NCBI GenBank assembly: GCA_043821445.1
Contig: JBDRCT010000031.1
Coordinates: 116,871 to 180,870, forward strand
Origin: Candidatus Omnitrophota bacterium
GTDB taxonomy: Bacteria > Omnitrophota > Omnitrophia > Omnitrophales > Aquincolibacteriaceae
Reading direction: 5' to 3'
DNA length: 64,000 nt
The notes beneath the pieces are model-generated. The model saw only the letters and a list, made by a program, of their open reading frames with translations, was not told the DNA's origin and did not search any database. Within the stretch, counting starts at the first letter, position 1. Each line of letters opens with the position of its first letter. A program made the translations under genes and the position numbers. Below, in pieces: positions 1 through 32,857 of this stretch.

Positions 1-2
1 TG

Positions 3-3593: not shown

Positions 3594-4883
<1,290 letters not shown>

Positions 4884-12008: not shown

Positions 12009-13085
12009 ATGAATCTTCCCGTCCTCATACCTGCTTATAATCCGACAAAGATCTTGTCGGAATTGGTGCAGGCCCTTATCCGGCAGGGCTTTCAAAATAT
12101 CGTGGTCGTCGATGATGGAAGCGAGTCCGAATGTGCTTTTGTGTTCAGGGAAATAGAACAATGTCCGGAATGCACCGTATTGCGGCATGCCGTCAATCTT
12201 GGGAAAGGGGCGGCCTTAAAGACCGGTTTGAATCATATCTATTGTTCGTTCCCGGATCGGGCCGGGGCCATTACCCTTGATGCGGACGGCCAGCATTTGA
12301 TCGGTGACGTTCTCCGAGTGGAAGGTGCTTTAATGCTGCATCCTGAGAAATTGATCGTGGGAGCGAGGAAGTTCGATCAAGGCGTGCCTCTCCGAAGCAG
12401 GGTCGGGAATTTCATCACCAAAAATCTATTTTGCCTCTTGCTCGGGAAACGGCTGATGGACACACAAAGCGGATTGCGCGGGATCCCGATGGACTTCATC
12501 CCGCAACTTTTAAAGATCGGTTCGAATAGCTACGAGTTCGAGCTCGACATGCTTTTGGCATGCAAATATGCCGGCCGTCCCATCTTCGAGGAAGTCATAC
12601 AAACGGTGTATCTGGAGGGGAACAAGTCCTCTCACTTTAATCCCCTGATCGACTCGATGAAGATCTACTTCGCGCTCTTCCGGTTCGCATTGGCATCGCT
12701 CCTTGCGGCTTTGATCGACAACGTGATATTTTTTTTGGCATACGGCTCGAGTTTGAACATTGCCACAAGCCAGATCACGGGACGCGTGTTAAGCGCGACC
12801 TGCAATTATTTATTGGTCAAGAAGGCCGTTTTTTATTCTAAAAAACCTGTCGCGAAGACGCTCCCTGAATATTTTTTGCTCGTTTGTATTTCGGGGGCCG
12901 TCTCCTATTTCATGATCAAGACCATCACGGCTTATTTTCCGGTCCCGGTGATCGCGGCAAAGATCTTTTCCGAGACGGTCATTTTTTTGGCGAATTTCAC
13001 GATCCAGCGTGATTTTATATTTACCCAGGCCGCTCAAAGCAAAAGTGACCGGTTCAAATCTGAGGTCGACACTCAGCATGCATGA
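12009..13085 (+). CDS. GT2 family glycosyltransferase (polyprenyl-phosphate sugar synthase-like) fused to a C-terminal GtrA-like 4-TM domain
   Basis: N-terminal GT-A fold (VLIPAYNPTK...VVVDDGS...DADGQH, with the DxD motif). The C-terminal ~120 aa is hydrophobic with GtrA-like topology. Confidence 0.8.
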   Translation: MNLPVLIPAYNPTKILSELVQALIRQGFQNIVVVDDGSESECAFVFREIEQCPECTVLRHAVNLGKGAALKTGLNHIYCSFPDRAGAITLDADGQHLIGDVLRVEGALMLHPEKLIVGARKFDQGVPLRSRVGNFITKNLFCLLLGKRLMDTQSGLRGIPMDFIPQLLKIGSNSYEFELDMLLACKYAGRPIFEEVIQTVYLEGNKSSHFNPLIDSMKIYFALFRFALASLLAALIDNVIFFLAYGSSLNIATSQITGRVLSATCNYLLVKKAVFYSKKPVAKTLPEYFLLVCISGAVSYFMIKTITAYFPVPVIAAKIFSETVIFLANFTIQRDFIFTQAAQSKSDRFKSEVDTQHA

Positions 13086-14550
13086 GGAGACAAAGGAAAC
13101 GCTCAAAAAAACGGGCCTAAAGGCCTTTTTGCCTGGCAGTGAAATATTCCTGATCAATCCCTACATTACGAGTGCTGAGCGTTACGGGAAGGATATCGGC
13201 GATATGGGGGGGCATCAGATGCCTCTCGGAATCTACTATTTGGCGGCCCGTCTTTTACGGGATGGCAAGAAGGTAGAAGTGATCGACGCCGAGTCGCTCA
13301 GGATGCCCCATGATGAAGTGATTTTTTTTCTTAAAAAAGCTTCTCCCAAGATCATCGGCATCACTTCCACGAGCGTGGCATTTCGCAATGCCCGCTCTCT
13401 GGCGCAAATGATCCGCAAGGAGCTTCCCGGCATCGTCATCATTATCGGGGGACCCCATATGACTGCAATGCCCGATGCCACGATGCAATGCGGGGCTTTT
13501 GATTATGGGGTGGTCAGGGAAGGTGAGGCGGCTTTTTCCAAGCTTGTCAGATTTATTTTGGATCACGAGGGTTCTCTCGAAGGCATCCCCAATCTGTACT
13601 ATTTTGAGCATGCAACACTCCGGAGCAATTCCGAAGCTCCACCCATCCAAGACCTCGATGTCATCCCTTTTCCGGCAAGACAACTTTGCCGGGATCTCTC
13701 TTTATACAAACCCCCCGTGGGTGCTTTCCGTCTTCTGCCCGTGGTCAGCATGATCACCAGCCGGGGATGCCCCTATGAATGTATCTTTTGTGACAATAAT
13801 ACATTCGGACGCAGGACGCGCTTTCACTCCGCGGAGTATGTGGCGGCCGAGATCAAGGAATTGGTTCAAAAATATCATGCCAGGGAAATCGCCTTTTTGG
13901 ACGACACTTTCGTCTTGGATAAAAATAGATTGCGCCGGATCTTTAAAATATTGGACAAAGACAACTTTCATTTGAAGTGGACTTGTATGACGAGGGTCAA
14001 CAATCTGGATTTCGAACTTCTCAAGTTCATGAGGGATCATGGCTGTTGGCAGATCCGGATCGGGATCGAAAGCGGCAATCAGGGAGTGCTTGATTTTATC
14101 AAAAAGGGGATCACCCTGGGGCAAGTGAGGGATGTGGCGGGCTGGTGTAAGGAACTTAAAGTATGCGTCTCGGGATTTTTTATGATCGGGCACCACATCG
14201 ATACGCCCAAGACCATTCAAGAAACCATCGAATTGGCGGTGAAGCTGCCCTTGACCGATGTGATCGCGACCCTCCATACGCCGATTCCGGGGACTGAGTC
14301 CTACAAGCGGGCCAAAGAGTACGGGACTTATGAGGAGGGGGACTGGACCGCGCTCAATTATTGGACGCCCTGCTTTGTCCCTAAGGGCTTGACCCAAGCC
14401 TACATGCTCGCCAAACAGTCCGAACTTTATCGAAGATTTTATCTTCGCCCGGGTGTTTTGTTGCGCCAAGTAGGGAAGATCCGGTCGCTCGCGATCCTGC
14501 GGAGTTTTTTAAGAAGCGCATTTCTGGGTCTGATGTTCACCAAAAAATAA
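13078..14550 (+). CDS. B12-binding domain radical SAM protein (paralog 1)
   Basis: N-terminal cobalamin-binding-like Rossmann region, then ITSRGCPYECIFCDN (CxxxCxxC). The ATG at 13078 overlaps the upstream stop. The ORF track begins at 13009. Confidence 0.85.
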   Translation: MHEETKETLKKTGLKAFLPGSEIFLINPYITSAERYGKDIGDMGGHQMPLGIYYLAARLLRDGKKVEVIDAESLRMPHDEVIFFLKKASPKIIGITSTSVAFRNARSLAQMIRKELPGIVIIIGGPHMTAMPDATMQCGAFDYGVVREGEAAFSKLVRFILDHEGSLEGIPNLYYFEHATLRSNSEAPPIQDLDVIPFPARQLCRDLSLYKPPVGAFRLLPVVSMITSRGCPYECIFCDNNTFGRRTRFHSAEYVAAEIKELVQKYHAREIAFLDDTFVLDKNRLRRIFKILDKDNFHLKWTCMTRVNNLDFELLKFMRDHGCWQIRIGIESGNQGVLDFIKKGITLGQVRDVAGWCKELKVCVSGFFMIGHHIDTPKTIQETIELAVKLPLTDVIATLHTPIPGTESYKRAKEYGTYEEGDWTALNYWTPCFVPKGLTQAYMLAKQSELYRRFYLRPGVLLRQVGKIRSLAILRSFLRSAFLGLMFTKK

Positions 14551-14576
14551 TTCTACCGGTATGTTTTTTCACCCAG

Positions 14577-14905
14577 GATTGGCACGTTCTTCACGAGCTC
14601 GCCTGCGATCTTTTAAAGAAAAAACCCCTCGCCGGAAGAAAGCCCATCCGTTTGTTGGGGCTCGGCATGAGCGGGCTAGGCGCCAAAAACGAGCTCTCGG
14701 TTTCGACGCAAGGGGAACTGTTCTAACAAATTTTATTCAAAATGTTGGAATTTAATTTCAGCCTTCAACAGAAAAAAAGTATAGTAAACTATGCGCATGG
14801 CTCAGCCATTTCCATTCTTTAAGCGAAAGATCCTATGAATCCTTCTGTCCTCATACGTGCTTATAATCCGACAAAGATCCCGGCAGAGTTGGTGCGATCC
14901 TCTAT
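14577..14905 (+). repeat. Degenerate direct duplicate of the dinB 3' end, the downstream spacer and the GT2 5' end (copy of ~11688-12075)
   Basis: 14577-14726 matches 11688-11835 (ggcatgttcttcacgag..tcgcctgcgatctttt...gggctcggcatgagcgggctaggcg...ggagaactgtt) with scattered mismatches. 14764-14905 matches 11940-12075, including the GT2 start ATGAATC. The fragment then diverges and is non-coding. Confidence 0.85.
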
Positions 14906-15010
14906 CCGACGGAAGACCGTCGAATTATTTGTCAGCCATTTTAAATTCTTTGGGTTTCAAAACGAAAAGTTGTCGCAGCCAAGACCGGCTATGAAAAAGG
15001 ATGGGAGCTA

Positions 15011-16465
15011 ATGCGAATCGCTTTTATCAACCCGCCCTATCTGCATATCTACGGAAAAATTGCAACCGGCAAGCACTGTTCTTTTCCGCTAGGCTTAGGA
15101 TATATGGCCTCTTATGTTCGTGAGCATGGACATACTCCTGCGATTTTTGATATCGAAGCGATGCCCTATCCTTTTGCTGAAACATGGCAGCAAATACTCC
15201 GTTTTAAACCTGATCTTCTCGCGATCACCTCCGTTACCGCAAATTTTACCCAGGCAAAGTTCTTAGCCGAAAAGGCTAAAACTGAGATAGGCTGCCTTGT
15301 CATTATGGGGGGACCTCATGTTGCGGCGCTGCCGGAGGCCACTCTTCAGGCGGTGACCGGACTGGATGCAGTCATTACCGGGGAGGGAGAAGAACCATTG
15401 CGAATTCTGGCGGATCAATTCGATGCGACCGGTAAGGTCGACTTCGCTTCTGTCCCAAGCACGTGTTTCATCGCTCATGGCAAATTTCAACGGTCAGCCC
15501 GGCTGAGTTTGATAGAGAATCTCGATTGCATTCCCTATCCGGCCAGAGATCTTGTGGACATGTCATGGTATAGTTTGCCGCCTCATTTTCAACGCGGGAA
15601 AAAATCCGCCACTATTCTTTCTAGTCGCGGCTGTCCCTCTAAGTGCACTTTTTGCGGCAATCTTATTCATGGAAGAAATTTCCGTTTCAACAGTCCCGAT
15701 TATTTCGTATCTGAGCTTCAAATGCTTCGAGATAAATATGGCATACGGCACTTCCATGTTGTCGATGACTGCTTTTCAGCGGATCCGGAGCGGGTCCAGG
15801 CCATTTGCCGATTGATTCTTGATAGAAAGCTGACCGATATCACCTGGTTCATTTTTGGCCGGGCGGACACGCTTCAAGATGAAAAATTGATAACTAGCAT
15901 GCGTCGCGCCGGATGTGTTTATATTCTATTGGGAGTGGAAAGCGGTTCCGAGCACGTATTGGAAAAAATGCGCAAAGAGACGTCTCTTGATACCGTGAGA
16001 ACATGTTGCAAGCTTCTGCGCAAACATCGAATAGCCTACTTCAACTCTTTTATGATCGGGAATGTCGGGGAAACGGAAGAGGATGTCATGAAGAGCATCG
16101 CCTTTGCAAAGGAATTGAAATCTGTTATGGCTGGGTTCAGCATTATGACGCCGTTCCCGGGAACCCACATATTTAATAAGTTCTACAGCGATCTTGCGAA
16201 TAAGGATACCCATTGGGACAACTTCACTTCTGTTGCATCGAAAATCGCTTTCACTGTAAAACATACTTCCTTGAACAATTCTGATATTGAACGTTTAACG
16301 GCACTGGCATACAAAAAATTTTATTGCGACCTGTCCCAAATATTGAGACTTCTAAGTTTTATCAATAGCCCCAGAACATTCATAAGATACATAGGGGGCG
16401 GATTAGGGGTCTTGCGGTATTATCTTCAGTTGAAACGTCAATCGAAAAGCGCAAATCCTGGTTAG
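15011..16465 (+). CDS. B12-binding domain radical SAM protein (paralog 2)
   Basis: ILSSRGCPSKCTFCGN cluster motif. The N-terminal B12-binding-like domain is colinear with paralogs 1 and 3. Confidence 0.85.
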   Translation: MRIAFINPPYLHIYGKIATGKHCSFPLGLGYMASYVREHGHTPAIFDIEAMPYPFAETWQQILRFKPDLLAITSVTANFTQAKFLAEKAKTEIGCLVIMGGPHVAALPEATLQAVTGLDAVITGEGEEPLRILADQFDATGKVDFASVPSTCFIAHGKFQRSARLSLIENLDCIPYPARDLVDMSWYSLPPHFQRGKKSATILSSRGCPSKCTFCGNLIHGRNFRFNSPDYFVSELQMLRDKYGIRHFHVVDDCFSADPERVQAICRLILDRKLTDITWFIFGRADTLQDEKLITSMRRAGCVYILLGVESGSEHVLEKMRKETSLDTVRTCCKLLRKHRIAYFNSFMIGNVGETEEDVMKSIAFAKELKSVMAGFSIMTPFPGTHIFNKFYSDLANKDTHWDNFTSVASKIAFTVKHTSLNNSDIERLTALAYKKFYCDLSQILRLLSFINSPRTFIRYIGGGLGVLRYYLQLKRQSKSANPG

Positions 16466-16493
16466 CCATTTATCCAATCGATAAAGACCCGTT

Positions 16494-17396
16494 ATGAAAT
16501 TTCAAAAACAACAGCAATTATGTCCGGTGTGCGGTTCTGAAGGCTTTGATGTGGTTCTTTCTCCTTGGGCGGAAGAGGCCGACCCCGCTCAGTTGTATGG
16601 CGCGGCATCAGGGATGCCCGGAACGCAACAACTTGTGAAATGCTTGGCGTGCGGCATGATCTATGAAAACCCGCGTTATGATGCGAACGTCATTATTCAG
16701 GGATATACAGCATCGCAAGAGGCGGAACATGATAGCCAGTACCCCATGCGTGTTCGCAGTTTTTTTAAAACACTTCAAAAGCACATGGGAAAAATTCCTT
16801 CAAAAGGATCCAAAGTGTTGGATATTGGAACTGCGGGCGGTGCTTTTCTCGATGCAGCCAAGCAATTCGGATATAACGCCTATGGTATGGAGCCCTCAGC
16901 GGACTTGGTGAAACGCGGCCGCGCGCGTGGATTACAAGTAGAACAGGGGACGATTGAAAAACATAATTTCCTTCCCGGCTCTTTTGACATGGTTTGCCTG
17001 TGGGATGTTATTGAGCATTTGCCCGATCCAAAATCGGCGCTCATCGAGATTAGAAAATTATTGAAACCCAATGGCATTTTACTAGTCAATTTTCCTGATA
17101 TAGGGACTTTGCAAGCCAGGCTAGCTGGGAAGCGGTTCTGGTGGCTTCTGTCCGTTCATCTGCATCATTTCACACGCAAGTCCATGGCCGATATTTTTAA
17201 GCGAACCGGGTTTGAAGCTTTTCATTTCCAGCGCTATTGGCAAATTCTAGAGTTTGGCTATCTGGAAAAAATGGCAGCCCGTTACAAAATACCGTTCGCG
17301 GAGTTGATAGCTAACTTGACCCCAGGATCCATCCAAAGGATCCCGATCCCGTATTACGCGAGTCAAACAACAGCCCTTGCACGGATTTCAAAATGA
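16494..17396 (+). CDS. Class I SAM-dependent methyltransferase with N-terminal Zn-ribbon (sugar C-methyltransferase-like architecture)
   Basis: N-terminal CPVCGS...CLACGM zinc ribbon. VLDIGTAGGAF motif I and DMVCLWDVIEHLPDP motif. The architecture resembles NDP-sugar C-methyltransferases. Confidence 0.75.
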   Translation: MKFQKQQQLCPVCGSEGFDVVLSPWAEEADPAQLYGAASGMPGTQQLVKCLACGMIYENPRYDANVIIQGYTASQEAEHDSQYPMRVRSFFKTLQKHMGKIPSKGSKVLDIGTAGGAFLDAAKQFGYNAYGMEPSADLVKRGRARGLQVEQGTIEKHNFLPGSFDMVCLWDVIEHLPDPKSALIEIRKLLKPNGILLVNFPDIGTLQARLAGKRFWWLLSVHLHHFTRKSMADIFKRTGFEAFHFQRYWQILEFGYLEKMAARYKIPFAELIANLTPGSIQRIPIPYYASQTTALARISK

Positions 17397-18802
17397 CCAC
17401 TTACATTCTTGGGGCGGGGCCGACTGGTTTGGCGGTTGCGGACGGCTTGATCGATGTTAGCGCGGGCGATTTCGTGGTTTTGGAACAAGGCGCTAAATTG
17501 GGGGGGCAGGCCCGAACTGTTCGATGGGAAGGGGTGGGTCATCACGATCTTGGACCGCACAAGATTTTTTCTCTTAATAAACATTTAACCCACCGGGTCG
17601 AGGCTCTTCTCCCTGGATCTGACTGGTTAACGAGAGACAAAGTTAGCAGTATTTTTATGAGGGGACATTATTTGCCGTATCCCCCATCTCCATTCTCCCT
17701 TGCCGGTGTTTTTGGACTAGCGGCATTTCTGAAGATGGTTGCCGGTTATGGATTTGCGCGCATGGGTAGTTTGTTCAGTTCGCGCAAGTCCGCAACATTT
17801 GCGGAAGATCTGGTCACCCGCTTGGGGAGGCCGCTTTATGAGATTTTGTTTAAACCCATTGCCGAAAAATTATGGGGCGAGCCTAAGAGCTTGGATGTAA
17901 AATTGTCCAGAGGAAGAGTCCAAACCCCATCGCTTTTGGAGCTGCTTGGCCGGCTATTGAAGATCAAAAAAAACAGCGAATTTGAAGCATTGACGTTCCG
18001 CTATCCCAAGGGAGGATTGGGACGATTGTGGGAGGCTATTCAGACAAAGGCGCAAGGTCGCGGAAGGTTTCTTCTGGAACACACTGTCACAGGGCTTGGT
18101 GTGGAGGCTAACCGTGTCCGGCAGATCAGATTCTCTTCGAAAGAGATCAATGGAGTGATCGATTTAGCTCCGGAGGATCAGGTGGTTTCGACTTTGCCGC
18201 TGGCGCAAACGGCGCAGTTTTTATCTCAGGTATTGCCGCCCCATTTTCCGAAGTTGGTAGAAAATGTTATTGTCTTGAACGATCTGCTGCTAGTGTTCCT
18301 GCACATCGATAAGCCCAGTTTATTGCGTGAGTCTTGGCTGTTTATCCCGGATCCAGAAATCGCGTTCCATCGCTTGAGCGAACAAGAATCTTTTGATCCG
18401 GCGATGACCCCCAACGGTAGTATTGTGTGTTGCGAAATGATGAGCAGCGCTTGCCGCCCACTGGCTGGAAAAACTGATGAAGAGTTGTCTGCGCTTGCTC
18501 TTGAGGGGCTCGCGGCCATGGGTTACGGTGATTTTAAAGTGTTGGGCAAGAGAGTTCTTAGGTTGCCAAAGAGTTACCCGGTATTTCGCACCGGTTTTGA
18601 GGTCGGTTTGTCCGAACTTATCAACGCTCTAGATCAGTTCAAAAATTTTCATTCCATTGGAAGGCAAGGTGCATTTAATTACATAGGGACCCTTGATGCT
18701 ATGGACATTGGATACGGATTTGCTGACTGGCTCGCGAATGGTAGAAGTCGTCCTTGGCAGGACGAGCGCAAGAGAACCAATCACTATCCAGTGCTGGATT
18801 GA
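17393..18802 (+). CDS. FAD/NAD(P)-binding oxidoreductase (amine-oxidase/PPOX-like fold)
   Basis: N-terminal ILGAGPTGLAVA dinucleotide-binding motif. 469 aa. Start overlaps the methyltransferase stop. Confidence 0.75.
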   Translation: MTTYILGAGPTGLAVADGLIDVSAGDFVVLEQGAKLGGQARTVRWEGVGHHDLGPHKIFSLNKHLTHRVEALLPGSDWLTRDKVSSIFMRGHYLPYPPSPFSLAGVFGLAAFLKMVAGYGFARMGSLFSSRKSATFAEDLVTRLGRPLYEILFKPIAEKLWGEPKSLDVKLSRGRVQTPSLLELLGRLLKIKKNSEFEALTFRYPKGGLGRLWEAIQTKAQGRGRFLLEHTVTGLGVEANRVRQIRFSSKEINGVIDLAPEDQVVSTLPLAQTAQFLSQVLPPHFPKLVENVIVLNDLLLVFLHIDKPSLLRESWLFIPDPEIAFHRLSEQESFDPAMTPNGSIVCCEMMSSACRPLAGKTDEELSALALEGLAAMGYGDFKVLGKRVLRLPKSYPVFRTGFEVGLSELINALDQFKNFHSIGRQGAFNYIGTLDAMDIGYGFADWLANGRSRPWQDERKRTNHYPVLD

Positions 18803-18805
18803 ACC

Positions 18806-20317
18806 ATGCGATTAACGATGATCTCGCCGAGACTGGCTTTTCAAAAAGGAGATTTCCTGGGTTCCGGGGTCCCTTACTGGCCTTTGGAGTTGGCCACGCT
18901 TGCTGCCTACGCACTTCAGACGGGAGATACCGTTGCTTTTGTCGATCAGTTTGGTGCCAATCCGTCTCGACTCGCCGACGCAGGTGATCATTATCTCCAA
19001 GGGGAGCCCATTGATACCCCGGCGTGGCGTGAACGATTGGAGCAGGCGGAGGCATTTGTCTTGTACGCTATCTCCTATATGTCACACGGAGACTTACTTG
19101 TGACAATCCGATGGCTTAAAGATTCATTTCCTGAAAGACCAGTAGCCGTTCTGGAGAATTCTCAAGCAGTCACCGCTTACTCACTGGAGTGCATGGCACC
19201 CTCCTTTTTTGATGCGGGGGCGGATCTGCTGATCTGCGGGGAGCCCTACTTCAACTGGGCCGCGATCAAAAGACAATTAACGGAAAAGGGCCACGATCCA
19301 TCGATAGTTCCTAACGTCATCACGCGAGAATCTCGCGTCTCACCCCGCCGGTTCAATGAAAAACTAGACCGCTATCCAATTCCGGCATGGGATCTCATGA
19401 ATTTAGATGGATATTGGCGATTGCCCTATGCTCATGGTCCCAAAACGCGCAAATTCCTGCCGATCCTCACATCCCGGGGTTGTCCCTATCCTTGCGATTT
19501 TTGTGTTGTGCCTGAGACGAACGACAAACAGTGGCGGGGAAATGATCCCGAACAGGTTGTCGACGAGATGATCGCTCTGCGAGACCAATATGGTGTTCAT
19601 GACTTTCAGGTTGAGGATCTTAATCCTACCGTTCAACCCCATCGTTGGGAAAAAATTTGTGAACTTTTGATCAAGCGCAAAGCCGATATTCGGTTTTATT
19701 TTGTAAGCGGAACAAAAGCTGAAACTGTCCCTGTGGATAAAACAGCTCTGTTCGCAAAAGCCGGTTGCAGGTATCTATCCATCAGCCCGGAATCTGGCAG
19801 CAGCGATCTGATGCAAGTCATGGGGAAGAGATTTGACTATTCCCGGGGTGTCGAATTAATTGCGGCGTGTAAAGCCTGTGGCATTCGGACGCAAGCCTGT
19901 TTTTTGGTAGGGCATCCTAATGAAACGGAAAAAGATCTCGAACTTTCAAACAGCTACCTTTCACGCCTGGTCAAGGCGGGGTTAGATGAGGTCGCCGTTT
20001 TTGTTCTCGCACCCTTTGCAGGAAGTGAGCTCCATAGAAGAAAGAGCATCATTTTGAAAGATCAAAACACTCTCATCAGCTTTTCGCCGAAAGGACGGGC
20101 TGATTACGAAATGTTATCGCGTAGCAGGAGGATGCTTGTGCGAACTTTTCTCATCCAAAAATTAAAATATAACGGGATCGAATTGTGCTTGCAGGGATTG
20201 CGAGCGATTTTGGGTGTCCCAGAAACCAAGGTCGAAAATTTGCCCCGGCGGATGGTCTTTATTTACTGGCAGGTGCTGAAGCTAGCCGTGGCCAAAAAGT
20301 CAGGTCCTCGATCATGA
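18806..20317 (+). CDS. B12-binding domain radical SAM protein (paralog 3)
   Basis: ILTSRGCPYPCDFCVVPE cluster motif. Same domain order as the other two paralogs. Confidence 0.85.
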   Translation: MRLTMISPRLAFQKGDFLGSGVPYWPLELATLAAYALQTGDTVAFVDQFGANPSRLADAGDHYLQGEPIDTPAWRERLEQAEAFVLYAISYMSHGDLLVTIRWLKDSFPERPVAVLENSQAVTAYSLECMAPSFFDAGADLLICGEPYFNWAAIKRQLTEKGHDPSIVPNVITRESRVSPRRFNEKLDRYPIPAWDLMNLDGYWRLPYAHGPKTRKFLPILTSRGCPYPCDFCVVPETNDKQWRGNDPEQVVDEMIALRDQYGVHDFQVEDLNPTVQPHRWEKICELLIKRKADIRFYFVSGTKAETVPVDKTALFAKAGCRYLSISPESGSSDLMQVMGKRFDYSRGVELIAACKACGIRTQACFLVGHPNETEKDLELSNSYLSRLVKAGLDEVAVFVLAPFAGSELHRRKSIILKDQNTLISFSPKGRADYEMLSRSRRMLVRTFLIQKLKYNGIELCLQGLRAILGVPETKVENLPRRMVFIYWQVLKLAVAKKSGPRS

Positions 20318-21024: not shown

Positions 21025-21039
21025 CAGGAGGTTGTTCCT

Positions 21040-21423
21040 ATGTATGACGTTTCTATCAAAACCATTATTGCTATCACCCTTTTTGCCTGCGGGTATATGT
21101 TTTTTATTATTCGCAAGACAGCCCGAGGCCAACTGGACCTCTATGACCTGATCATGTTGTCCGCAGTGGCCATTATTCCGAGCGCGTTCGCATTGTTCCC
21201 CAAGGTCGGGGTTTTTTTAGCGACCAGTACGGGGGTGCTGTTTCCTTTTGTTGTGTTATTCGGGATCTTGCTTGTGATTCTCTTTATTTTTATACATCGC
21301 CTGACTGTCAAGATCCACCGATTGGAATCGGATAGCCGGTTGCTATTGCAGGAATTAAGTTTGCTCAAGCAAACCGTAGACAACAAACAAAGCCGCATTG
21401 CTCCGGCAGTTTCAGCTCAATAA
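21040..21423 (+). CDS. Small 3-4 TM membrane protein (DUF2304-like partner of GT2)
   Basis: 127 aa, very hydrophobic, with a C-terminal amphipathic tail. Lies immediately downstream of the GT2 gene, a pairing common for polyprenyl-P-sugar synthases. Confidence 0.6.
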   Translation: MYDVSIKTIIAITLFACGYMFFIIRKTARGQLDLYDLIMLSAVAIIPSAFALFPKVGVFLATSTGVLFPFVVLFGILLVILFIFIHRLTVKIHRLESDSRLLLQELSLLKQTVDNKQSRIAPAVSAQ

Positions 21424-21524
21424 ATCCTTTTTTGCGACCAGAGTTCTCAAGATCTCCGTTGCGGAGCATTGACGTGACGAGGGTCGATAGGTGCCGAGGA
21501 GCATCCTTCGGCGTCTCGAACTCT

Positions 21525-23327: not shown

Positions 23328-23333
23328 AGGGCT

Positions 23334-25124: not shown

Positions 25125-26872
25125 TACAAGTCCTCAGCGTTTCCGATGAGATCAGACGGATTTGCCTGATTTTTTTGAAGCTCCTGAAGAGTCGCGAGAA
25201 GCTCATGCGCAGGACGTAAAAAAGGATCAAGCGTGATGGCCCTTTCGAGCAGCGAGATCGCCTGCGGATACTCTTTTTTTAGCACATAAATACGAGCCAA
25301 CTCATAATGCGCGATCGAACTTTCGGGCTCCGAGGCGATCGCTGTTTTTAACAAGGAGGCCGCGCTCTCCAGATCTCCCTCTCTCATTTTCAAGACGGCC
25401 AGGTTCGTATAAAGGGTGCCCGACCTTGGATAGGCTTCGAGCCCTTTATGATACCAATACTTCGCTTTAGAAATTTGTCCCGCATTTGCATAGGCCGATC
25501 CCACATTATTGAAATGAATATCATTCCTCTGGCCGGGTGATTTCAAGGATAACGCTTTCAAAAAACTATCAGCTGCCAACAGATATTGATGGTTTTTGTT
25601 GTACGTTTCACCCAGGTGAAAATAGCCGCGGCTTTGCAAAGGAGCTGCCCGGGTTTGATCTTGCCAGAAAAGGAGCTCGTTTGCCCATACGGCGTTGCGC
25701 CGATAAGTGAGCGTCCCCAAAATGAGCGCCAGCGCGATTAAGACAAATCTAAAAAGTCCGGAGGTTTTGATGAATTTCGTGAGGACTGAAGCCGCAAAAA
25801 AACAAAATCCGACCATTGGGAGATAAAGGCGATGTTCAAAGATCACGTCTTTAGCGGGGAAAAAAGAAGACTCGGGGATCAGGGTCAGAAAGAAAAATAA
25901 AATACCAAAAGATAAAAGGCGGTATTTTTTAAAGAGTGCGATAGCGAGCGAGAAAATGCCAAGAAGGAGGAAAAAAGCCGACCATGTATTAAGATCGCCC
26001 CAACCCGTTGAAAGAGGATATTCATAATCGAGGCACTGATCGATCGGAAAGAAAAGAAGCCTCAGATAAGTCCTTATAACGCGGAATTGAGTTAAAAGGT
26101 AATCCCATCGATAAATCTTGTCGTCTAGGGGAGGCAGATTGCCAATAAGATGCTCCGGAAATGTTATAAAAATCAAAGGAATGATCAAAAGACAGGCCGC
26201 AAAAGGGATCCAACGGCGGAGTTTTTTTGAAACGGTTTCAATCGGAGAGAACGGGAAAAAACACACATCGATCAGAAGGATCGTAAAAGGAAGCGTGATG
26301 CTGATCTCCTTCGTGAGCATGGCGAGCAGCATAAAAAGAGAAACAGACCAAAAATAGCGGGTATTTTCAAGGCGTGCTTTAAGATAAAACCAGAGAGTGG
26401 CCAGGTAAAAAAGGGCGGCTAACGAGGTCATGCGTTGAACGACGTATGTGACGGCCTGAGTCTGAATGGGATGTGCTACAAATAAAAAAGCGGTTCCGAG
26501 AGCGAACAGATCTTGGTGCGAAGCGGGGAGAGTGTTCTTGAGTGCGGGCGTCCTTAACAGTGATCGAGCGATCCCGAAAACGGCGAGTGCCGCCAGAAGA
26601 TGGATCAGGAGATTGGTAAGATGAAAACCCCAGGGAGACAGACCCGTTAAAGAATATTGCAGGGCAAAGCTTATGTTTGCGACAAAACGGGTAGGGAAAC
26701 TTTCCCAGATTCTTTCCAAGCTGATAGAGGGGCGCAGGGAGAGATTTCTAATGATTCGATGCTGATCATCAAAATAGAAGGGGGCGTTGAGGGTATTGGA
26801 GTAGATGAGGCACCCCAACAAAAGAAGCAGTGCGACGGACACAGAGAGCGACAAAGATTTTTCTTTTTCCAT
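25124..26872 (-). CDS. PMT/TMTC-like GT-C membrane protein with TPR domain, paralog 3 (type A')
   Basis: 582 aa with a YFDD motif. Closest to paralog 1 (shared ...RIWESFPTRFVAN.SFALQY.LTGL.PWGFHL.NLLIHLL). Confidence 0.7.
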   Translation of the reverse strand: MEKEKSLSLSVSVALLLLLGCLIYSNTLNAPFYFDDQHRIIRNLSLRPSISLERIWESFPTRFVANISFALQYSLTGLSPWGFHLTNLLIHLLAALAVFGIARSLLRTPALKNTLPASHQDLFALGTAFLFVAHPIQTQAVTYVVQRMTSLAALFYLATLWFYLKARLENTRYFWSVSLFMLLAMLTKEISITLPFTILLIDVCFFPFSPIETVSKKLRRWIPFAACLLIIPLIFITFPEHLIGNLPPLDDKIYRWDYLLTQFRVIRTYLRLLFFPIDQCLDYEYPLSTGWGDLNTWSAFFLLLGIFSLAIALFKKYRLLSFGILFFFLTLIPESSFFPAKDVIFEHRLYLPMVGFCFFAASVLTKFIKTSGLFRFVLIALALILGTLTYRRNAVWANELLFWQDQTRAAPLQSRGYFHLGETYNKNHQYLLAADSFLKALSLKSPGQRNDIHFNNVGSAYANAGQISKAKYWYHKGLEAYPRSGTLYTNLAVLKMREGDLESAASLLKTAIASEPESSIAHYELARIYVLKKEYPQAISLLERAITLDPFLRPAHELLATLQELQKNQANPSDLIGNAEDL

Positions 26873-26990
26873 AAAAATTTGATTTCAAACTCAATAATTA
26901 ATATAGAAGGATTATTTCTGATCAGTGTACGGTATTTTTTAATGTCCGCTCGAAGTTTTCCGCCATCTGTTTGCACGATTTTAGAATATC

Positions 26991-28781
26991 TTAATCTCCG
27001 AACAGGGGTTTGTGTTTCTTTTTGTATTTCAGATATTCCACCATGACGGCCACGGCCCTCGGCTCGTCCCCCTTTTTTTTATAAAGAAAAGCCAGGGCGT
27101 TATAGCCCTCCGGGGATAAAGGCGCCAGCTCAATGGCTTTCCGGAAAGAAGACACGGCCTCATCCTCTCGTTGCATTTTAAGATAAGCTTCTCCGAGATG
27201 GAGATAGAACAAAGGATTCTCAGGACTCATCTTTATGTCTTCCTTCAACATCTTGACGGCTCCTGCATAATCGCCCTTTTTGATCAGAGCAAGCGCATGA
27301 TTGTCATAAAAAGAAATATTGTCTTTCAAGGCCGAGGAAGATGAAATTATTTTTTGAAAATAAGCGCTTTTTTCGTATTCACCCAGACGGCCATAGGCGG
27401 CGGCCAAGTTATAAAAAACCCAGGGAGTGACAAAGCCCAAGTCCAATGCTTTTTGATAACAGACCGCCGCGGCCTTATCATCCCTTGCTTCCCTGCTGTA
27501 AGCATCGCCCAGGCCGGCATAAGAGAGCCCCTTGTGAGGATTTTTTCTTACGGCATCTTGGGCCAGCGAAGTGATGGTTTTCCATACTTCATTACGGGCA
27601 TAAGCCATGCTTGAAAAGACAACAGCGATGGCCAGTGAAATAGCGGTAAACCACTTCACGGACCTTAAAAGTATCCAAAGAAGCGATGTCAGGAAGAGGA
27701 CAAATCCGAACATGGGAAGGTAAAGGCGGTGTTCGAATATCAGATCAGGAACAGGGATCAGGGAGGACTCGACACTGAGGGTCAGGAAGAACCATAAAAC
27801 GCCGAACGTTATAAGGCGATTTTTTTTAAAAAAAGCGAGGGATAAAATAAAAACGCTCAAAAGCAATGAAAAAGCCGCCCACGTATCCGGATCTCCCCAA
27901 CCCGTTGAGAGACGATGATCATAAACAAGGCATTGATTGACCGGAAAAAAAAGAAGCCGCAAGTAGGTCCTCTCGACGCGGAACTGAGTCAGGAGATAAT
28001 CCCACCGGGGGGTGCTCTTAGCCATGGATGGGAGAATGTTGATGGATCCATCGATACGCGCGAGAAGATGAGGATATGTCAGATAAAGTAATGGGATGAT
28101 CAAAAGAAATGCCGCAAAAGGGAGCCAGCGGATCAATTTTTTGCCGAGAGGATCTTCGGCCGAGGGCGGAAAGAAGAACAATTCCGAAAGCAGGATCGCG
28201 AAGGGGAGGGTGAAGCTGATCTCTTTGGTCAACATGGCTGCCAACATGAGGAGAAAAACAACCCGGTAGTGACGAGCGTCCTCCAGTCGTGCTTTAAGGT
28301 ACATCCAGAGCGTCGCCAAATAAAAGAGGGCCGCCATCGAAGTCAAACGCTGCACAATATAAGTGACGGCTTGGGTTTGTACGGGATGTGTCGTGAATAG
28401 AAGTGCGGCGACCAAAGCAAACAGATTTTGTTGTGCGGGAGGTACCCAATCTTTCATGGAGGGAGTGCTGAGGACCGATCGGGTAAGATCGAAGACGACG
28501 AGCGAAGTAAGGATATGTATCAGCAGATTGACAACGTGAAAGCCCCATGTTGCAAAGCCCGTCAGGTAAATGTTGAAAGCGAAACTGAGATTTGCAACAA
28601 AGCGAAGAGGATGGTAGAGCCAGAGCTTTCCGAGATTCAGGGGCTGAAGGGAATGGTTTTCCAGGATGTTGGGGATATCATCGAACTGAAAAGCTCCGGT
28701 CAAACTATTAGAGTAGGCCGCGATCCCGAAGAGCAGGATGAGGAGCAGACAGGTTCGTGTGGATAACGGTTTTGAATTCAT
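26991..28781 (-). CDS. PMT/TMTC-like GT-C membrane protein with TPR domain, paralog 4 (type B)
   Basis: 596 aa. DNA identity to paralog 2 is roughly 95% over long stretches by eye (e.g. 28215-28350 vs 24560-24700). Preceded by a conserved sigma70-like promoter element. Confidence 0.7.
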   Translation of the reverse strand: MNSKPLSTRTCLLLILLFGIAAYSNSLTGAFQFDDIPNILENHSLQPLNLGKLWLYHPLRFVANLSFAFNIYLTGFATWGFHVVNLLIHILTSLVVFDLTRSVLSTPSMKDWVPPAQQNLFALVAALLFTTHPVQTQAVTYIVQRLTSMAALFYLATLWMYLKARLEDARHYRVVFLLMLAAMLTKEISFTLPFAILLSELFFFPPSAEDPLGKKLIRWLPFAAFLLIIPLLYLTYPHLLARIDGSINILPSMAKSTPRWDYLLTQFRVERTYLRLLFFPVNQCLVYDHRLSTGWGDPDTWAAFSLLLSVFILSLAFFKKNRLITFGVLWFFLTLSVESSLIPVPDLIFEHRLYLPMFGFVLFLTSLLWILLRSVKWFTAISLAIAVVFSSMAYARNEVWKTITSLAQDAVRKNPHKGLSYAGLGDAYSREARDDKAAAVCYQKALDLGFVTPWVFYNLAAAYGRLGEYEKSAYFQKIISSSSALKDNISFYDNHALALIKKGDYAGAVKMLKEDIKMSPENPLFYLHLGEAYLKMQREDEAVSSFRKAIELAPLSPEGYNALAFLYKKKGDEPRAVAVMVEYLKYKKKHKPLFGD

Positions 28782-28810
28782 AGAGCCTCAAAATTGAGCG
28801 ATCGCGGCGC

Positions 28811-28839
28811 ATTATGTTCGATTTGAAGACAGCGTACAA
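28811..28839 (-). promoter_or_regulatory. Conserved sigma70-like promoter (TTGTAC-N17-CATAAT on the minus strand) upstream of TMTC-like paralog 4
   Basis: The minus-strand sequence reads cggcaaaagacTTGTACgctgtcttcaaatcgaaCATAATgc. The element spans 28809-28850 and starts 27 nt upstream of the start codon. A near-identical element lies upstream of paralog 5. Confidence 0.45.
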
Positions 28840-28946
28840 GTCTTTTGCCGGGGGGATTTTTTAAAAATCGGATGGAGCATTCCGGAAGGTGAAAAGCCGG
28901 GTCGTCATCCACCCTCCGCTATCCGTTCTCCCGGTTTTGAAATACT

Positions 28947-30746
28947 TCAATTTCCAAACAAGGGTTTGTGCTTCTTTTTGAATTTCAGATATTCCACCAT
29001 GACATCCACGGCTTTTTGCCGTTCCCCCTTTTTTTTGTAAAAACGGGCCAGAGCATCGTAGCCTTCTCTGGATAAAGGTGCCAGGTCGATCGCTTTCCGG
29101 AAAGAAGCGATGGCGGCATCTTCTTGCCCCGTTTCGATATAGAGTTCCCCAAGCTGAATGTGAAAAAAATGATCCGGGGGGTTGGCTTTGATAGCTTTCT
29201 TTAAGGAGTCAATGGCCTCCGGTATTTTCTTTTCCTGTTTCAAATAGACCACTTGATTGTAATCAAGGATACCTCGCGCGGAGTAGCCTTCTGACTCCGC
29301 GGAAGCAAGCGCTTGTTTTTGGTAGTAAGCGCTTGCTTTAGAGTTTCCAAGTTGGGAATAAGCCGATGCCATATTGGTGAGAAGTACCGAGGTATAAGAT
29401 CCCGCTCTGAGCGCCTTGTTGAAAAACAGAATGGCGGTTTTAAAGTCTTTCAATTCTCCGGCATAAGCTAAACCCAGGGAACAATAAGGACGCCATTTGC
29501 GGGGGGATTTTTTTGACGCGTCTTCCCACAATGTGAAAGAATTTTGCCATACTTCGTTGCGGACATAGGTCATGCCGGAAAAAACCACAACCACGGACAG
29601 TGAAATGGCAGTAAACCATTGGGTGGACCTTAAAAGTATCCATAGAAGCGATGTCAGGAAGAGAACAAACCCGAACATCGGGAGGTAAAGGCGGTGTTCA
29701 TAGATGACGTCAGCAATAGGGATGATAGAAGATTCGATGCTGAGGGTCAGGAAGAACCATAAAACACCAAAGGTTAAGAGGCGATTTTTTTTAAAAAAGG
29801 CAAGGCTCAGGATGAAGATGCTGAAGAGTAATAAAAACGCGGCCCAAGTATCAGGATCTCCCAAACCCGACGAAATGCGGTAGTCGTAGTCGATGCATTG
29901 GTTCACCGGAAAAAAAAGAAGCCGCAGGTAGGTCCTCCCGACGCGGAACTGAGTCAGAAAATAATCCCATCGGGAGATATTGCCAGCCACGGACGGGAGA
30001 ACGTTCATGGATCCTCCGACGCGCGTGAGAAGAAAACTATTCATAAGAAAAAGCAAGGGGATGATCAAAAGAGATGCCGCGAAAGGGATCCAGCGGATAA
30101 GTTTTTTGCCAAGAGGGTCTTCGGCACAGGGTGGAAAGAAGAACAATTCTGAAAGCAGGATCGCAAAGGGAAGAGTGAAGCTGATCTCTTTGGTCAACAT
30201 GGCAGCAGCGGTGAAGCAGAGAGCAAGACGATAGTGACGGGGATCCCCAAGGCGTGTCTTGAGATACATCCAGAGCGCGGTTAAATAGAAAAGGGTTGCC
30301 ATCGAAGTCGCGCGTTGCACGATATAAGTCACAGCTTCGGTTTGCACGGGATGTGTCGTGAAAAGAAGTGCGGCGACCAGGGCAAACAGATTTTGCTGCG
30401 CGGGAGGCACCCAATTTTTCATGGAAGGGGTGTTGAGGATCGATCGAGTAAGATTGAAGACGATGAACGAAGTAAGGATATGTATCAGTAAATTTAAAAC
30501 ATGAAAGCTCCATGTTGCAAAACCCGCCAGATAAATGTTGAAAGAGAAGCTGAGATTTGTGATGAAGCGGGAGGGATATTCCCGCCAGAGAGTTCCGAGA
30601 TTGAGAGGCCAAAGGGAACGGCCTTCCAAAATGTGCATGCCATCATCAAACTGAAAAGATCCGGTAAAAGTGTTGGCATAGGCCCCGATCCCGAAGAGCA
30701 GGATCAGGAGAAAACAGGTTCGTGTGGATAACGGGTTTGAATTCAT
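28947..30746 (-). CDS. PMT/TMTC-like GT-C membrane protein with TPR domain, paralog 5 (type B')
   Basis: 599 aa with a QFDD motif. The N-terminal half is closely related to paralogs 2 and 4. Confidence 0.7.
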   Translation of the reverse strand: MNSNPLSTRTCFLLILLFGIGAYANTFTGSFQFDDGMHILEGRSLWPLNLGTLWREYPSRFITNLSFSFNIYLAGFATWSFHVLNLLIHILTSFIVFNLTRSILNTPSMKNWVPPAQQNLFALVAALLFTTHPVQTEAVTYIVQRATSMATLFYLTALWMYLKTRLGDPRHYRLALCFTAAAMLTKEISFTLPFAILLSELFFFPPCAEDPLGKKLIRWIPFAASLLIIPLLFLMNSFLLTRVGGSMNVLPSVAGNISRWDYFLTQFRVGRTYLRLLFFPVNQCIDYDYRISSGLGDPDTWAAFLLLFSIFILSLAFFKKNRLLTFGVLWFFLTLSIESSIIPIADVIYEHRLYLPMFGFVLFLTSLLWILLRSTQWFTAISLSVVVVFSGMTYVRNEVWQNSFTLWEDASKKSPRKWRPYCSLGLAYAGELKDFKTAILFFNKALRAGSYTSVLLTNMASAYSQLGNSKASAYYQKQALASAESEGYSARGILDYNQVVYLKQEKKIPEAIDSLKKAIKANPPDHFFHIQLGELYIETGQEDAAIASFRKAIDLAPLSREGYDALARFYKKKGERQKAVDVMVEYLKFKKKHKPLFGN

Positions 30747-30778
30747 TGCAGGCTCTCAGTGTTAAATAATGGTGGTGC

Positions 30779-30807
30779 ATTATGTTCGATTTAAAGACGG
30801 CGCACAA
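30779..30807 (-). promoter_or_regulatory. Second copy of the conserved sigma70-like promoter (TTGTGC-N17-CATAAT) upstream of TMTC-like paralog 5
   Basis: The 42-nt element 30777-30818 is about 38/42 identical to 28809-28850. It sits at the same distance from the start codon. Confidence 0.45.
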
Positions 30808-30931
30808 GTCTTTTGCCGCAAAAATCTTTCAAAAACAAGAAGACACCGGGCAACGAGGAATTTGGAGTTATACTTTAATGATCATGGCGACGAACAGGGC
30901 GCGATATATATTGCCGGCCCGGGATCCGGGA

Positions 30932-32857
30932 TCACATGACCCGGAGCGCCCCTTGCGGGCGGGGAAGTTCTTTTTTTTCTTGATCACCACTCTCGGATCG
31001 ATCCAAAAGCATTTGCGCTGCGGCAAGATTGTTCTTGACGGATTCGTTTTCCGGTTCGAGTTCGAGAGCCTCTTGAAAAGCCTGTGCGGCATTCTTATAA
31101 TCCCCCGAATTCATAAAAGCAGCTCCTAAACCCGCGTAACTATCCACTTCTTTCGGATTCAGTATGATAGCTTGCCGAAATAATCGGATGGCTTTTTGAT
31201 TTTCTCCCCGCACAGTATAAATAACCCCGAGACTGCGACGGGCGGAAGCCTCTCTCAAGGGAGCCTCAGGCTGGGTCTTTCGTTCCCGCTGATATTCCGG
31301 ATCCGTTTCAAGCGCGATAGATTTTTCAAGGTAGGGCAGTGCTTCGGCGCGTTGCCTTTGTAAAAGATGTATATCTGCCATTTCAAGATAACAAAGAGCT
31401 TGGGTAAATGGCTTTGCGAGCGTGATCGCATGCCGGTAAGTGTCCAGGGCCTCTTGGTAGCGGCCGTTCCTTCCATAGATCTTGCCAAGATCCACGTAGG
31501 GGTAAAGATAGTCCGGCTTCAAGAGGATGGCTTTTCGAAATAAAAAAATAGTTTGGTCTTGAGTGCAAATTTTTGGACTATCACGGCATAGAATTCCCAG
31601 GTGAGCGTAGGCGAACGATGAGTGAGGGTTTTGGCGCAGAAGCTGCCACCAAAGCGTGAACCCGTCTTTATAGTTCAGGGTCAGGCGGAAGCTCAGGATA
31701 GAAAGATAAACGATCACTGCCGCAACGATGCTTTTTTTAAAAAAAGGAGAAGGAGCCCAGGAAGCGGTCCGGATCTTTGAAAGTAAGAGGGAAATGCCCG
31801 AGCAGAACAACAGCAGAATGGATGGAACGGAGAGGTAGGTGTAGTGGTCCGCTACATAAGAAAACCGGTGCCAACAAAAATCAAGGAGCCCCAGTACAGG
31901 GAAAAGGGAAACGCCGTAGAAACAAAGAAGCGCGAAAGCCCCGCGGCCAAGGCGGTGACGTTTCCAAAACAATATTGCATAAAGGGTCAGGACCCCCGCA
32001 GGATAAAGCCATGCGGTCACAGGGTTCCCGCCGATTGTCCACTTGGGGTAAAAGGTCATGAAATCCCGGGGAAGTATCATTTGCTGGATGTAAAAGAAGA
32101 AGATCCGTCCTGCGAGGAGCACCCTTTCAATAAGGCTTAACGGAAGATCGGGGATCTGCGGGGAGATGCTATAAGCATTTACAAGGTCAAGATGGAGGAT
32201 CGAGATCATGCCCCCTATCAGGAAAAGGGGCATGGCGAGAAGGAAATCGCGCTTGCAGAGGGAGCCTCGCTTCCACCACCCATAGAGGAGAGGAACGAAC
32301 GCAAAGCAAGCCGCTATGGGTTTACTCAAAAGTGCGGCGATAAAAAAAAGAAGTGATTTCGCGTAGGCCCTTTTTTTTCTGCTTACCTCGAAATCAAGAA
32401 ATGCGTGAACAGCCAACAGGAAGAAAAAAAAGCAAAATAGATTCTTTTGCTCCGAGATCCAGGCAACTGTTTCGACATGGATAGGATGGATCACGAACAG
32501 TAAAGCAATGATGCCGGCCAGACGGGGGGCCCATTTCCGCAAAAGTCCGAAAAGAAGCAGGGCGTTCAAAATATGGAACACTAAACTGATAACATGATAT
32601 CCCCAAGCGCTGACTCCCCAGAGTTTGTACTCGAGTCCGATACAAGAAAGAGTAACGGGATAATATTCTTCAATAATGTTATTGTGGAACCAAATGTTCT
32701 TGAGCCCCGCCCAGGAGCTGACAAATGGATTTTCAAAAACATAAAAACTATCATCCCAAACAAAACCATGGGTCAAAGAACGCGCGTAGATGAGTATCCC
32801 AAGAGTGACCGTCAATAAGACCCAAAACAGTTCTTTGGCCGAAAGCTTTCCGTTCAA
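30932..32857 (-). CDS. PMT/TMTC-like GT-C membrane protein with TPR domain, paralog 6 (divergent type C)
   Basis: 641 aa. Same architecture (polytopic N-terminus with a VWDD motif after TM1, C-terminal TPR repeats) but divergent in sequence. TTG start preceded by a GGGAGG RBS. Confidence 0.65.

Follow-up and report, generated by a model that had tools for sequence, protein, structure and literature searches.

Layered dinB-leuC locus of an Omnitrophota bacterium with a mobile, probable lipid-linked sugar cassette beside a resident array of predicted GT-C/TPR glycosyltransferases

Introduction

The route from a GT2 synthase through a flippase to a GT-C glycosyltransferase is a known scheme, represented by the Gac, Gtr, Arn, PpgS and PMT systems. 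In this study we analysed a locus in a 64,000-nt stretch of a Candidatus Omnitrophota genome (hereafter the window; positions are counted within it) whose catalogued set of 14 genes (12009-32857) has the makings of such a route. On the plus strand it carries genes for two GT2 enzymes, a DUF2304 membrane protein and candidate sugar-tailoring enzymes, and on the minus strand an array of six genes for GT-C proteins with C-terminal tetratricopeptide repeats (TPRs). We think it reasonably probable that this is a layered locus in which a lipid-linked sugar made by the plus-strand cassette is used by the GT-C/TPR array.

The closest described systems cover the two halves separately. GacJ and Rv3632, of the DUF2304 family, are small membrane proteins that bind and stimulate the polyprenyl-phosphate-N-acetylhexosamine (HexNAc) synthases GacI and PpgS, and in S. 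pyogenes the product of GacI/GacJ is used by the GT-C enzyme GacL (bioRxiv 10.1101/180810). TfpW is a protein of 646 aa with 11 transmembrane helices, a DDx motif in loop 1 and periplasmic TPRs, which adds D-arabinofuranose to pilins (bioRxiv 10.1101/2020.04.19.049825). It was the one bacterial precedent for the GT-C/TPR architecture found in our literature search, in which no paper characterising a bacterial TMTC-like family was found. The donor of TfpW is reported to be a polyprenyl-phosphate-linked furanose, and the biosynthetic genes named for it are DprE1/DprE2. TMTC-type enzymes have been studied in animals, where they glycosylate cadherins as protein O-mannosyltransferases.

Results

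The locus is built of three layers

The core genes dinB (DNA polymerase IV; 10756-11835, plus strand; Pfam IMS, IMS_C and IMS_HHH) and leuC (32927-34342, plus strand; Pfam Aconitase, 1.6e-178) flank the locus on the left and right, and ORF listing and Pfam scans confirmed all 14 genes between them with the domains given in the initial annotation. That six paralogues stand in tandem and 14 genes share one theme is far beyond what chance would give. The earlier view that everything between dinB and leuC is a single accessory island was refuted by synteny: the array is resident in relatives, and it is the plus-strand half that is variable, being itself made of two layers. The locus thus consists of three layers.

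Layer 1 (21525-32857) is a resident tandem array of GT-C/TPR genes that varies in copy number. We compared close relatives in which proS, dinB and leuC are 82-92% identical to those of the window, with leuC (82-91%) in the same position. In L001, L002 and L020, dinB is followed by four GT-C/TPR genes and leuCD, and in L022 two GT-C/TPR genes occupy the site; none of these has the plus-strand operon. Since the array stands at the dinB-leuC site in relatives without the operon, it is resident, in 2 to 6 copies. The array is fast-evolving, with orthologues 60-85% identical by BLASTP, as against ~91% for the flanking genes. Beside leuC, the four-gene relatives (L001, 7611-7826; L020, 5702-5917) also carry a 72-codon fragment that is 79% identical to the start of TM6, the last gene of the array, and is the remnant of a lost TM6 copy.

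Layer 2 (15011-21423) is, to judge from its distribution, a horizontally mobile cassette with the order rSAM2-MT-FAD-rSAM3-GT2-DUF2304, where rSAM denotes a radical S-adenosylmethionine (SAM) enzyme, MT a methyltransferase and FAD a flavoprotein. It is absent in L001 and L022 and present in L023, where the six genes follow dinB directly and are 88-97% identical to those of the window (rSAM2, 93%).

Layer 3 (12009-14550) is a later insert of two genes, GT2-GtrA and rSAM1, which is absent in L023, L001 and L022. It is bounded by direct repeats of ~400 nt, the duplication scars of the initial annotation, which we recovered as two pairs: D8 (11681-11842 and 14572-14733, 90% identical) and D7 (11913-12082 and 14739-14908, 83% identical). 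The last ~155 nt of dinB belong to the left copy. The right copy is a non-coding scar (14572-14908) in which a decayed dinB 3' end is joined to copies of the dinB-GT2 intergenic region and of the opening ~75-100 nt of the GT2-GtrA gene; its dinB-like part contains stop codons in frame 1, the frame tried. A three-way alignment showed that L023 carries the corresponding junction. This pattern is a signature of single-crossover integration or tandem duplication followed by partial deletion. No tRNA gene marking an integration site was found at the locus.

The array encodes predicted GT-C glycosyltransferases with TPR domains

The array consists of six intact open reading frames (ORFs) of 582-641 aa on the minus strand. 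These are TM1 (21525-23327; structural model), which lies nearest to the cassette, TM2 (23334-25124; alignment and tree), TM3 (25124-26872) and TM4 (26991-28781; both by Pfam TPR and alignment), TM5 (28947-30746; Pfam TPR and a weak PMT_2 match) and TM6 (30932-32857; PMT_2 match and alignment), a member of a distant subfamily. Strong C-terminal TPR matches to Pfam were obtained for all six. Their N-terminal halves gave PMT_2 matches in three cases, all below threshold (best E 8e-6; TM6 25.4 bits and TM5 20.8 bits, with a gathering threshold of 26.1 bits for PF13231), and none of the six paralogues is a PMT_2 member by score. A PDB search with the N-terminal profile of the six proteins gave no match at E<=10, and with the full-length profile it returned TPR proteins only.

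The predicted structure of TM1 (pLDDT 89.8, pTM 0.90) contains 11 hydrophobic helices, after which the TPRs begin at about residue 404. On structural comparison its N-terminal domain of ~400 residues has a GT-C fold closest to protein O-mannosyltransferases, so that the fold proposed initially was borne out despite the weak PMT_2 matches. An F/W-x-x-DD motif (D34-D35) is invariant in all six paralogues. In the model it lies in the first loop after helix 1 (residues 8-22), before the next membrane helix. With a count of 11 helices, the TPR domain comes to lie across the membrane from the N terminus, and together with the GT-C superposition this count would place the DD motif on the TPR (periplasmic) side. 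In an alignment of 64 sequences, built from database relatives of the array proteins, D34 is invariant and D35, K187, E351 and R353 are each conserved in at least 90%; H133-P134 (in LLFxxHPIQT), H352 and Y355 are also invariant, and K187 lies in T-K-E-I-x-F-T. Since the GT-C fold is present and the DD motif is conserved, as initially expected, in a predicted periplasmic loop, the glycosyltransferase reading stands, and the six proteins are predicted to be inner-membrane GT-C glycosyltransferases with periplasmic TPR domains.

TM1 to TM5 share 51-88% pairwise identity in the catalytic domain and 27-69% in the TPR domain. The TPR domains diverge faster than the catalytic domains (27% versus 65% for TM1 and TM3), which would fit a diversified acceptor recognition. 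TM2, which shares 88% identity in the N-terminal domain and 69% in the TPR domain with TM4, is a recent duplicate of the latter. TM3 has the most divergent TPR domain of the five close paralogues, only 27-31% identical to those of TM1, TM2, TM4 and TM5. TM6 is only 26-34% identical to the other paralogues and carries W-DD and HPIHVETV motifs. In L001 we found orthologues of TM3 (L001_c, from the tree), TM4 (85% identical) and TM5 (84% identical, both by BLASTP), while the tree gave no orthologue of TM1 in the relatives examined. The family as a whole is large, with more than 5144 database matches.

We also noticed a 67-nt segment present in two copies (28801-28867 and 30769-30835, 81% identical) upstream of these two minus-strand genes, TM4 and TM5. 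Although the consensus promoter scan did not flag it, the segment might serve both as promoter or leader.

The plus-strand enzymes resemble synthases and tailoring enzymes for a lipid-linked sugar

The GT2 gene of the cassette, GT2b (20314-21024, plus strand; Glycos_transf_2, 1e-24), lies in an ORF that opens at 20185; its start was put near 20314 because homologues are 235-240 aa long. Among PDB entries it matched the dolichyl-phosphate mannose synthase (DPMS) of Pyrococcus (5mlz, 1e-16), GtrB (5ekp) and ArnC. The DUF2304 gene (21040-21423, plus strand; Pfam DUF2304, 4.5e-12), whose product is a small membrane protein like GacJ and Rv3632, follows after 16 nt. In agreement with the pairing initially proposed, the two genes encode a polyprenyl-phosphate-sugar synthase pair of the GacI/GacJ (PpgS/Rv3632) type.

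The second GT2 enzyme, GT2-GtrA of layer 3 (12009-13085, plus strand), combines a catalytic domain (Glycos_transf_2, 1e-13) with a four-helix membrane domain (GtrA_DPMS_TM, 2e-13), and its best NCBIfam matches were PpgS and AglJ, both below cut-off. PpgS was the best NCBIfam model for both GT2 enzymes, with 77.9 bits for GT2-GtrA and 75.9 bits for GT2b against a cut-off of 370 bits (NF058614); neither reaches equivalog-level similarity. Both thus belong to the PpgS class, the synthase class named in the initial annotation, without being the same enzyme as PpgS. The GtrA part had been taken for a fused flippase. We rejected this, GtrA_DPMS_TM being the regular C-terminal membrane domain of DPMS-type synthases.

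Three radical SAM enzymes accompany the synthases. rSAM1 (13009-14550, plus strand; the real start is perhaps downstream of 13009) and rSAM2 (15011-16465, plus strand), the first gene of the cassette, combine Pfam B12-binding and Radical_SAM domains and are clear class B radical SAM enzymes. In rSAM3 (18806-20317, plus strand) Pfam recognised only Radical_SAM and no B12-binding domain, so that the description of all three as B12-dependent is uncertain for this one. AprD4 (6fd2), a sugar diol-dehydratase, was the nearest PDB relative of both rSAM1 (8e-22) and rSAM3 (8e-15).

The methyltransferase (16494-17396, plus strand; Pfam Methyltransf_23 and Methyltransf_11) is a class I SAM enzyme with an N-terminal zinc ribbon of four cysteines (C10, C13, C50 and C53, in CPVCG...CLACG), read from the translation. 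The nearest PDB entry was an uncharacterised methyltransferase (3cc8, 1e-12), followed by the sugar 3-C-methyltransferases KijD1 (5t64, 3e-9) and TcaB9; 4rv9 also matched. The protein resembles sugar C-methyltransferases. For the flavoprotein (17393-18802, plus strand; Pfam NAD_binding_8 and Amino_oxidase), which uses flavin adenine dinucleotide (FAD), the best PDB matches were eukaryote-type UDP-galactopyranose mutases (4u8l/3ute type, 5e-20 over residues 4-357; 4dsg, 5.7e-13 over residues 4-430). Pfam gave no GLF domain match for it, and its NCBIfam match, PRK07208-like, was below cut-off. We regard it as a candidate pyranose-to-furanose mutase. The expectation that these enzymes have sugar-tailoring relatives was borne out by the PDB matches, and the cassette would appear to serve the production of a tailored sugar on a lipid carrier, its chemistry being read from distant relatives only.

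The cassette recurs in other phyla with changing membrane partners

We scanned one genome per species with rSAM3, which belongs to a family of more than 1083 proteins (E<1e-30). An rSAM3 gene 58-73% identical to that of the window was found in nine genomes of other phyla, namely metagenome-assembled genomes of Thiobacillus, Pirellulales, Betaproteobacteria, Legionella, Erythrobacter, Elusimicrobia, Inquilinaceae and one unclassified organism, and a Solemya symbiont. The phyla represented include Proteobacteria, Planctomycetes and Elusimicrobia. In all nine the genes MT-FAD-rSAM3-GT2-DUF2304 are collinear, whole or in part, at 38-80% identity. All five are present in seven loci; L013 is cut inside the flavoprotein gene, and in L014 the MT and flavoprotein frames are split. 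The MT is 61-78% identical in eight of the loci. In the Thiobacillus and Betaproteobacteria loci the cassette has a GC content of 49%, as against 54-61% in the flanks. L007 (Pirellulales) carries, just upstream of the MT gene (7473-7673), a 67-codon remnant of the rSAM2 5' end that is 80% identical, and a second fragment of 25 codons lies further upstream (5631-5705); the mobile unit must therefore once have included rSAM2 there.

What changes from genome to genome is the membrane protein next to the cassette. A PMT_2/PMT protein adjoins it in four of eight informative loci (L011 and L012 with scores above cut-off, L008 and L009 with weak ones), a YfhO-like protein in L007, and 10-12-helix proteins without Pfam match in L006, L013 and L014. 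In six genomes an LPG_synthase_TM protein follows directly after DUF2304. These partners are mostly dissimilar to one another and none has a homologue in the window. The pattern is that of one conserved donor module with interchangeable transferases.

Polynucleobacter paneuropaeus carries the cassette in a polysaccharide locus flanked by transposases. The insertion sequence/transposase genes that bracket it lie at 6815-7483 and 19447-19573 of L024 and at 2342-3010 and 14800-17039 of L025, and the bracketed segment also holds LPG_synthase_TM, two GT4 genes and three epimerase/dehydratase genes. This arrangement suggests that a named species harbours a glycan-modification island able to transpose.

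Possible coupling of cassette and array

Based on these observations, the following mechanism can be proposed. A nucleotide sugar would be tailored in the cytoplasm by the mutase-like flavoenzyme, the AprD4-like and B12 radical SAM enzymes and the zinc-ribbon methyltransferase, and the GacI-like GT2 with its GacJ-like DUF2304 partner would load it onto undecaprenyl phosphate. The lipid-linked sugars would then be flipped to the periplasm, where at least one GT-C/TPR enzyme may transfer the sugar to acceptors chosen by the divergent TPR domains. Envelope proteins are the probable acceptors, with glycans as another possibility. Layer 3 would contribute a further B12 radical SAM enzyme and a second synthase, DPMS-like and with a four-helix membrane domain of its own. 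To call the pathway complete, as was done initially, goes too far, since no nucleotide-sugar activation gene is among the 14 genes and neither a stand-alone flippase nor the LPG_synthase_TM partner was found.

We consider functional coupling of the cassette to the array somewhat better than an even bet. No PMT_2 domain was found outside the array among the window proteins scanned, and the array is the only detected candidate partner for the cassette in the window. In L004, an rSAM-rSAM-GT2-MT-rSAM-GT2-DUF2304 operon stands collinear and co-directional between GT-C/TPR genes of the same array, and in L015 a GT-C/TPR gene heads a GT2/WbqC/DegT sugar cluster. We rejected the idea that the operons of L004 and the window are orthologues, their proteins being 25-40% identical versus 87% for leuC; the two are analogous. 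On the far side of leuCD, L004 also carries a further sugar cluster (63-5874; GT2, DegT aminotransferase, GT4, methyltransferase and B12 radical SAM), adjoined by a 765-aa TPR protein, where the window has its pilus cluster.

Several findings weigh against coupling, and many of them favour an alternative in which the two halves are adjacent by accident, the cassette serving a GT-C enzyme elsewhere (polysaccharide or lipopolysaccharide) and the array using a common donor, such as undecaprenyl-phosphate mannose or glucose, on proteins. Cassette and array are convergently transcribed and hence not one operon. The array is kept at the same site without the donor operon in three relatives (L001, L020 and L022). 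More distant members of the family stand in tandem amid housekeeping genes (L026 and L027) or next to a giant gene (L017), in each case without a GT2 nearby; it follows that the array does not need an adjacent donor. Conversely, in the nine cassette loci of other phyla no GT-C/TPR homologue lies within 10 kb, and neither do the Polynucleobacter polysaccharide loci carry GT-C/TPR genes. The cassette elsewhere is part of clusters for polysaccharides, together with Wzx, Wzy_C, GT4 and epimerases, a setting which hints that the acceptors may be glycans rather than proteins. Against accidental adjacency, a PMT_2-type, YfhO-like or uncharacterised 10-12-helix protein is nearly always found beside the cassette elsewhere, a place for which the array is the sole detected candidate here, and the analogous operon embedded in the array of L004 and the sugar cluster headed by a GT-C/TPR gene in L015 tell the same way. 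On this evidence we hold accidental adjacency to be possible but rather doubtful.

Other points against a cassette-fed, TMTC-like array concern its components. Pfam DUF1736 (PF08409) gave no match at E<=10 in the six N-terminal domains, and the precomputed Pfam annotation of the 120 best family members does not list it either. The region yielded no stand-alone flippase, the LPG_synthase_TM partner is absent from the window, and the best NCBIfam matches of all three radical SAM enzymes fall below their cut-offs.

These NCBIfam matches bear on a second alternative, that the radical SAM enzymes, MT and flavoprotein modify a lipid (hopanoid-like or the polyprenyl carrier) or a peptide, with the GT2 enzymes merely nearby. 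The best models were HpnJ for rSAM1 (202 bits), BchE for rSAM2, and BzaD and BchE for rSAM3; C-methyltransferases of ribosomally synthesised and post-translationally modified peptides and lipid B12-radical SAM families came lower in the lists, and the flavoprotein weakly matched HpnE and CrtI. All these matches are far below cut-offs, however, whereas the nearest solved relatives (AprD4, UDP-galactopyranose mutase, KijD1/TcaB9) act on sugars. The five genes are strictly collinear with GT2 and DUF2304 across phyla, and precursor-peptide or hopanoid genes were not seen among the scanned neighbours. A lipid or peptide substrate is accordingly unlikely.

It is highly improbable that the six proteins are non-enzymatic TPR scaffolds of the PilW/TadD kind for the type IV pilus/secretion machinery encoded 4-14 kb downstream. 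In JGI several members of the family bear the name "Flp pilus assembly protein TadD" (and some "protein O-mannosyl-transferase"), and NCBIfam matched PilW and Tgl, but it is the TPR part alone that these pilus names reflect. The N-terminal domain of 400 residues adopts a GT-C fold; DD, HP, KE and EHR.Y are invariant or nearly so in the 64 sequences, which is unexpected for a mere membrane anchor; and L004 has lost the association with the pilus cluster.

If the cassette does feed the array, a wider and more tentative idea, which we would put forward as speculation, is that the mobile cassette makes a novel lipid-linked sugar, for example a deoxy and/or C-methylated furanose, and that the TMTC-like arrays of Omnitrophota O-glycosylate different envelope proteins, the TPR domain of each paralogue choosing the acceptor. 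If true, the acceptors might include pili or giant surface proteins of the phylum, and the arrays would be a prokaryotic counterpart, possibly the evolutionary source, of the eukaryotic TMTC pathway.

The giant gene of L017 mentioned above occupies 1-7673 of that locus, with a called product of 58,784 residues, and the GT-C/TPR gene P0082 (8001-10109) lies 330 nt downstream. It is conceivable that the giant product is an acceptor protein.

Neighbouring genes

To the left, the locus is preceded by dxr, rseP, proS and dinB (Pfam). To the right, leuC and leuD are followed by a repeat protein and then by the type IV pilus/secretion cluster (secretin, ATPase, platform protein and three pilin-like genes), whose pilin genes (45119-46610) are ~12 kb from the array. 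The initial suggestion that the pilins and secretin are substrates is speculative; in other genomes, members of the array family mostly have housekeeping genes as neighbours. The repeat protein (35119-36894, plus strand), located between leuD and pilM, has 591 aa and no Pfam match. It contains about six tandem repeats of ~45 residues (PKSxVPL..TPRxD.LRADLAAxKNxVALEEKVV...), rich in S/T-P, followed by one hydrophobic helix and a coiled-coil-like tail; relatives carry proteins of 364-709 aa without Pfam match in this position. Downstream of the pilin genes and directly after a response-regulator gene, 47600-49648 (plus strand) encodes a 682-aa protein with a putative glucoamylase domain and a CBM9 carbohydrate-binding domain. 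Scanning for promoters and terminators turned up no more sites than in shuffled sequence, and these scans were not used.

Discussion

The locus was initially regarded as undescribed. This holds for the gene set, while the scheme of GT2 synthase, flippase and GT-C enzyme, and with TfpW also a bacterial GT-C/TPR protein, were already known. Two things appear to be undescribed, the donor cassette with radical SAM tailoring and, in Omnitrophota as well as other uncultivated phyla, the arrays of several GT-C/TPR paralogues; a literature search for the combination of radical SAM, polyprenyl phosphate, GT-C and mutase found nothing. Bacterial GT-C/TPR relatives number in the thousands, and the donor cassette is common too and has no assigned product. 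By setting a donor module beside a transferase array, the locus offers a concrete, testable pairing, and it shows how modules for glycosylation pass from phylum to phylum and are added as layers to a resident family of transferases. Should the coupling prove wrong, both parts remain ordinary members of known enzyme classes.

Among known systems, the cassette compares best with Gac (the N-acetylglucosamine (GlcNAc) side chain of the S. pyogenes group A carbohydrate) and PpgS-Rv3632 of M. tuberculosis, which have the same order of GT2 then DUF2304 and a GT-C enzyme encoded nearby. It differs from them in that the window GT2 enzymes score 76-78 bits against the PpgS cut-off of 370, and in its built-in tailoring genes (two or three radical SAM enzymes, MT and mutase-like flavoprotein). 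A flippase of the Wzx/GacK type was not found in the window, and the GT-C enzymes there carry TPRs and form six paralogues. A parallel with the methylthioxylose cluster of M. tuberculosis was also weighed, but it could not be confirmed and was dropped. The Gtr (GtrA/GtrB/GtrC) and CsbB/GtcA/YfhO systems are modular and mobile and have interchangeable GT-C enzymes, as the cassette has across phyla (compare the YfhO-like neighbour in L007). In contrast to the cassette, the sugar that they attach to O-antigen or teichoic acids is glucose or GlcNAc in unmodified form, with a stand-alone GtrA flippase and without radical SAM tailoring.

For the array, the PMT systems (yeast Pmt1/2/4 with Ppm1/DPMS, and ArnC/ArnT) are a further point of comparison: identity is 9-13%, and the array proteins have a TPR domain in place of the MIR domain. 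TfpW of P. aeruginosa (Pa5196/PA7), compared here by its described architecture, has the same GT-C and TPR arrangement as the array, and a protein acceptor. The tfpW gene lies directly downstream of pilA, whereas the window pilins are separated from the array by leuCD; TfpW is a single gene with a donor pathway of the DprE1/DprE2 type, and the window has an array and another donor pathway.

TMTC1-4 (GT105) combine, like the array, an 11-helix GT-C domain with lumenal (in the array, predicted periplasmic) TPRs in several paralogues, whose acceptors in the array presumably differ. The array differs in its bacterial setting and in that DUF1736, the TMTC signature loop between TM7 and TM8, went undetected; its donor is probably not dolichyl-phosphate mannose. 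Of the TMTC motifs (PMC7801869), M5 (DW) has as its only counterpart RWD in five paralogues, which is not conserved in the wider family, and M7 (ERxxY) is roughly matched by E351-H-R353-L-Y355, with ADHYTY instead in TM6. M1 (DD) is present in the array and M4, KE(T/Q)xxT, corresponds to K187-E-I-x-x-T192, while LLFxxHPIxT of the array resembles the segment "SLLFAVHPIHT" of TMTC3 (PMC7801869).

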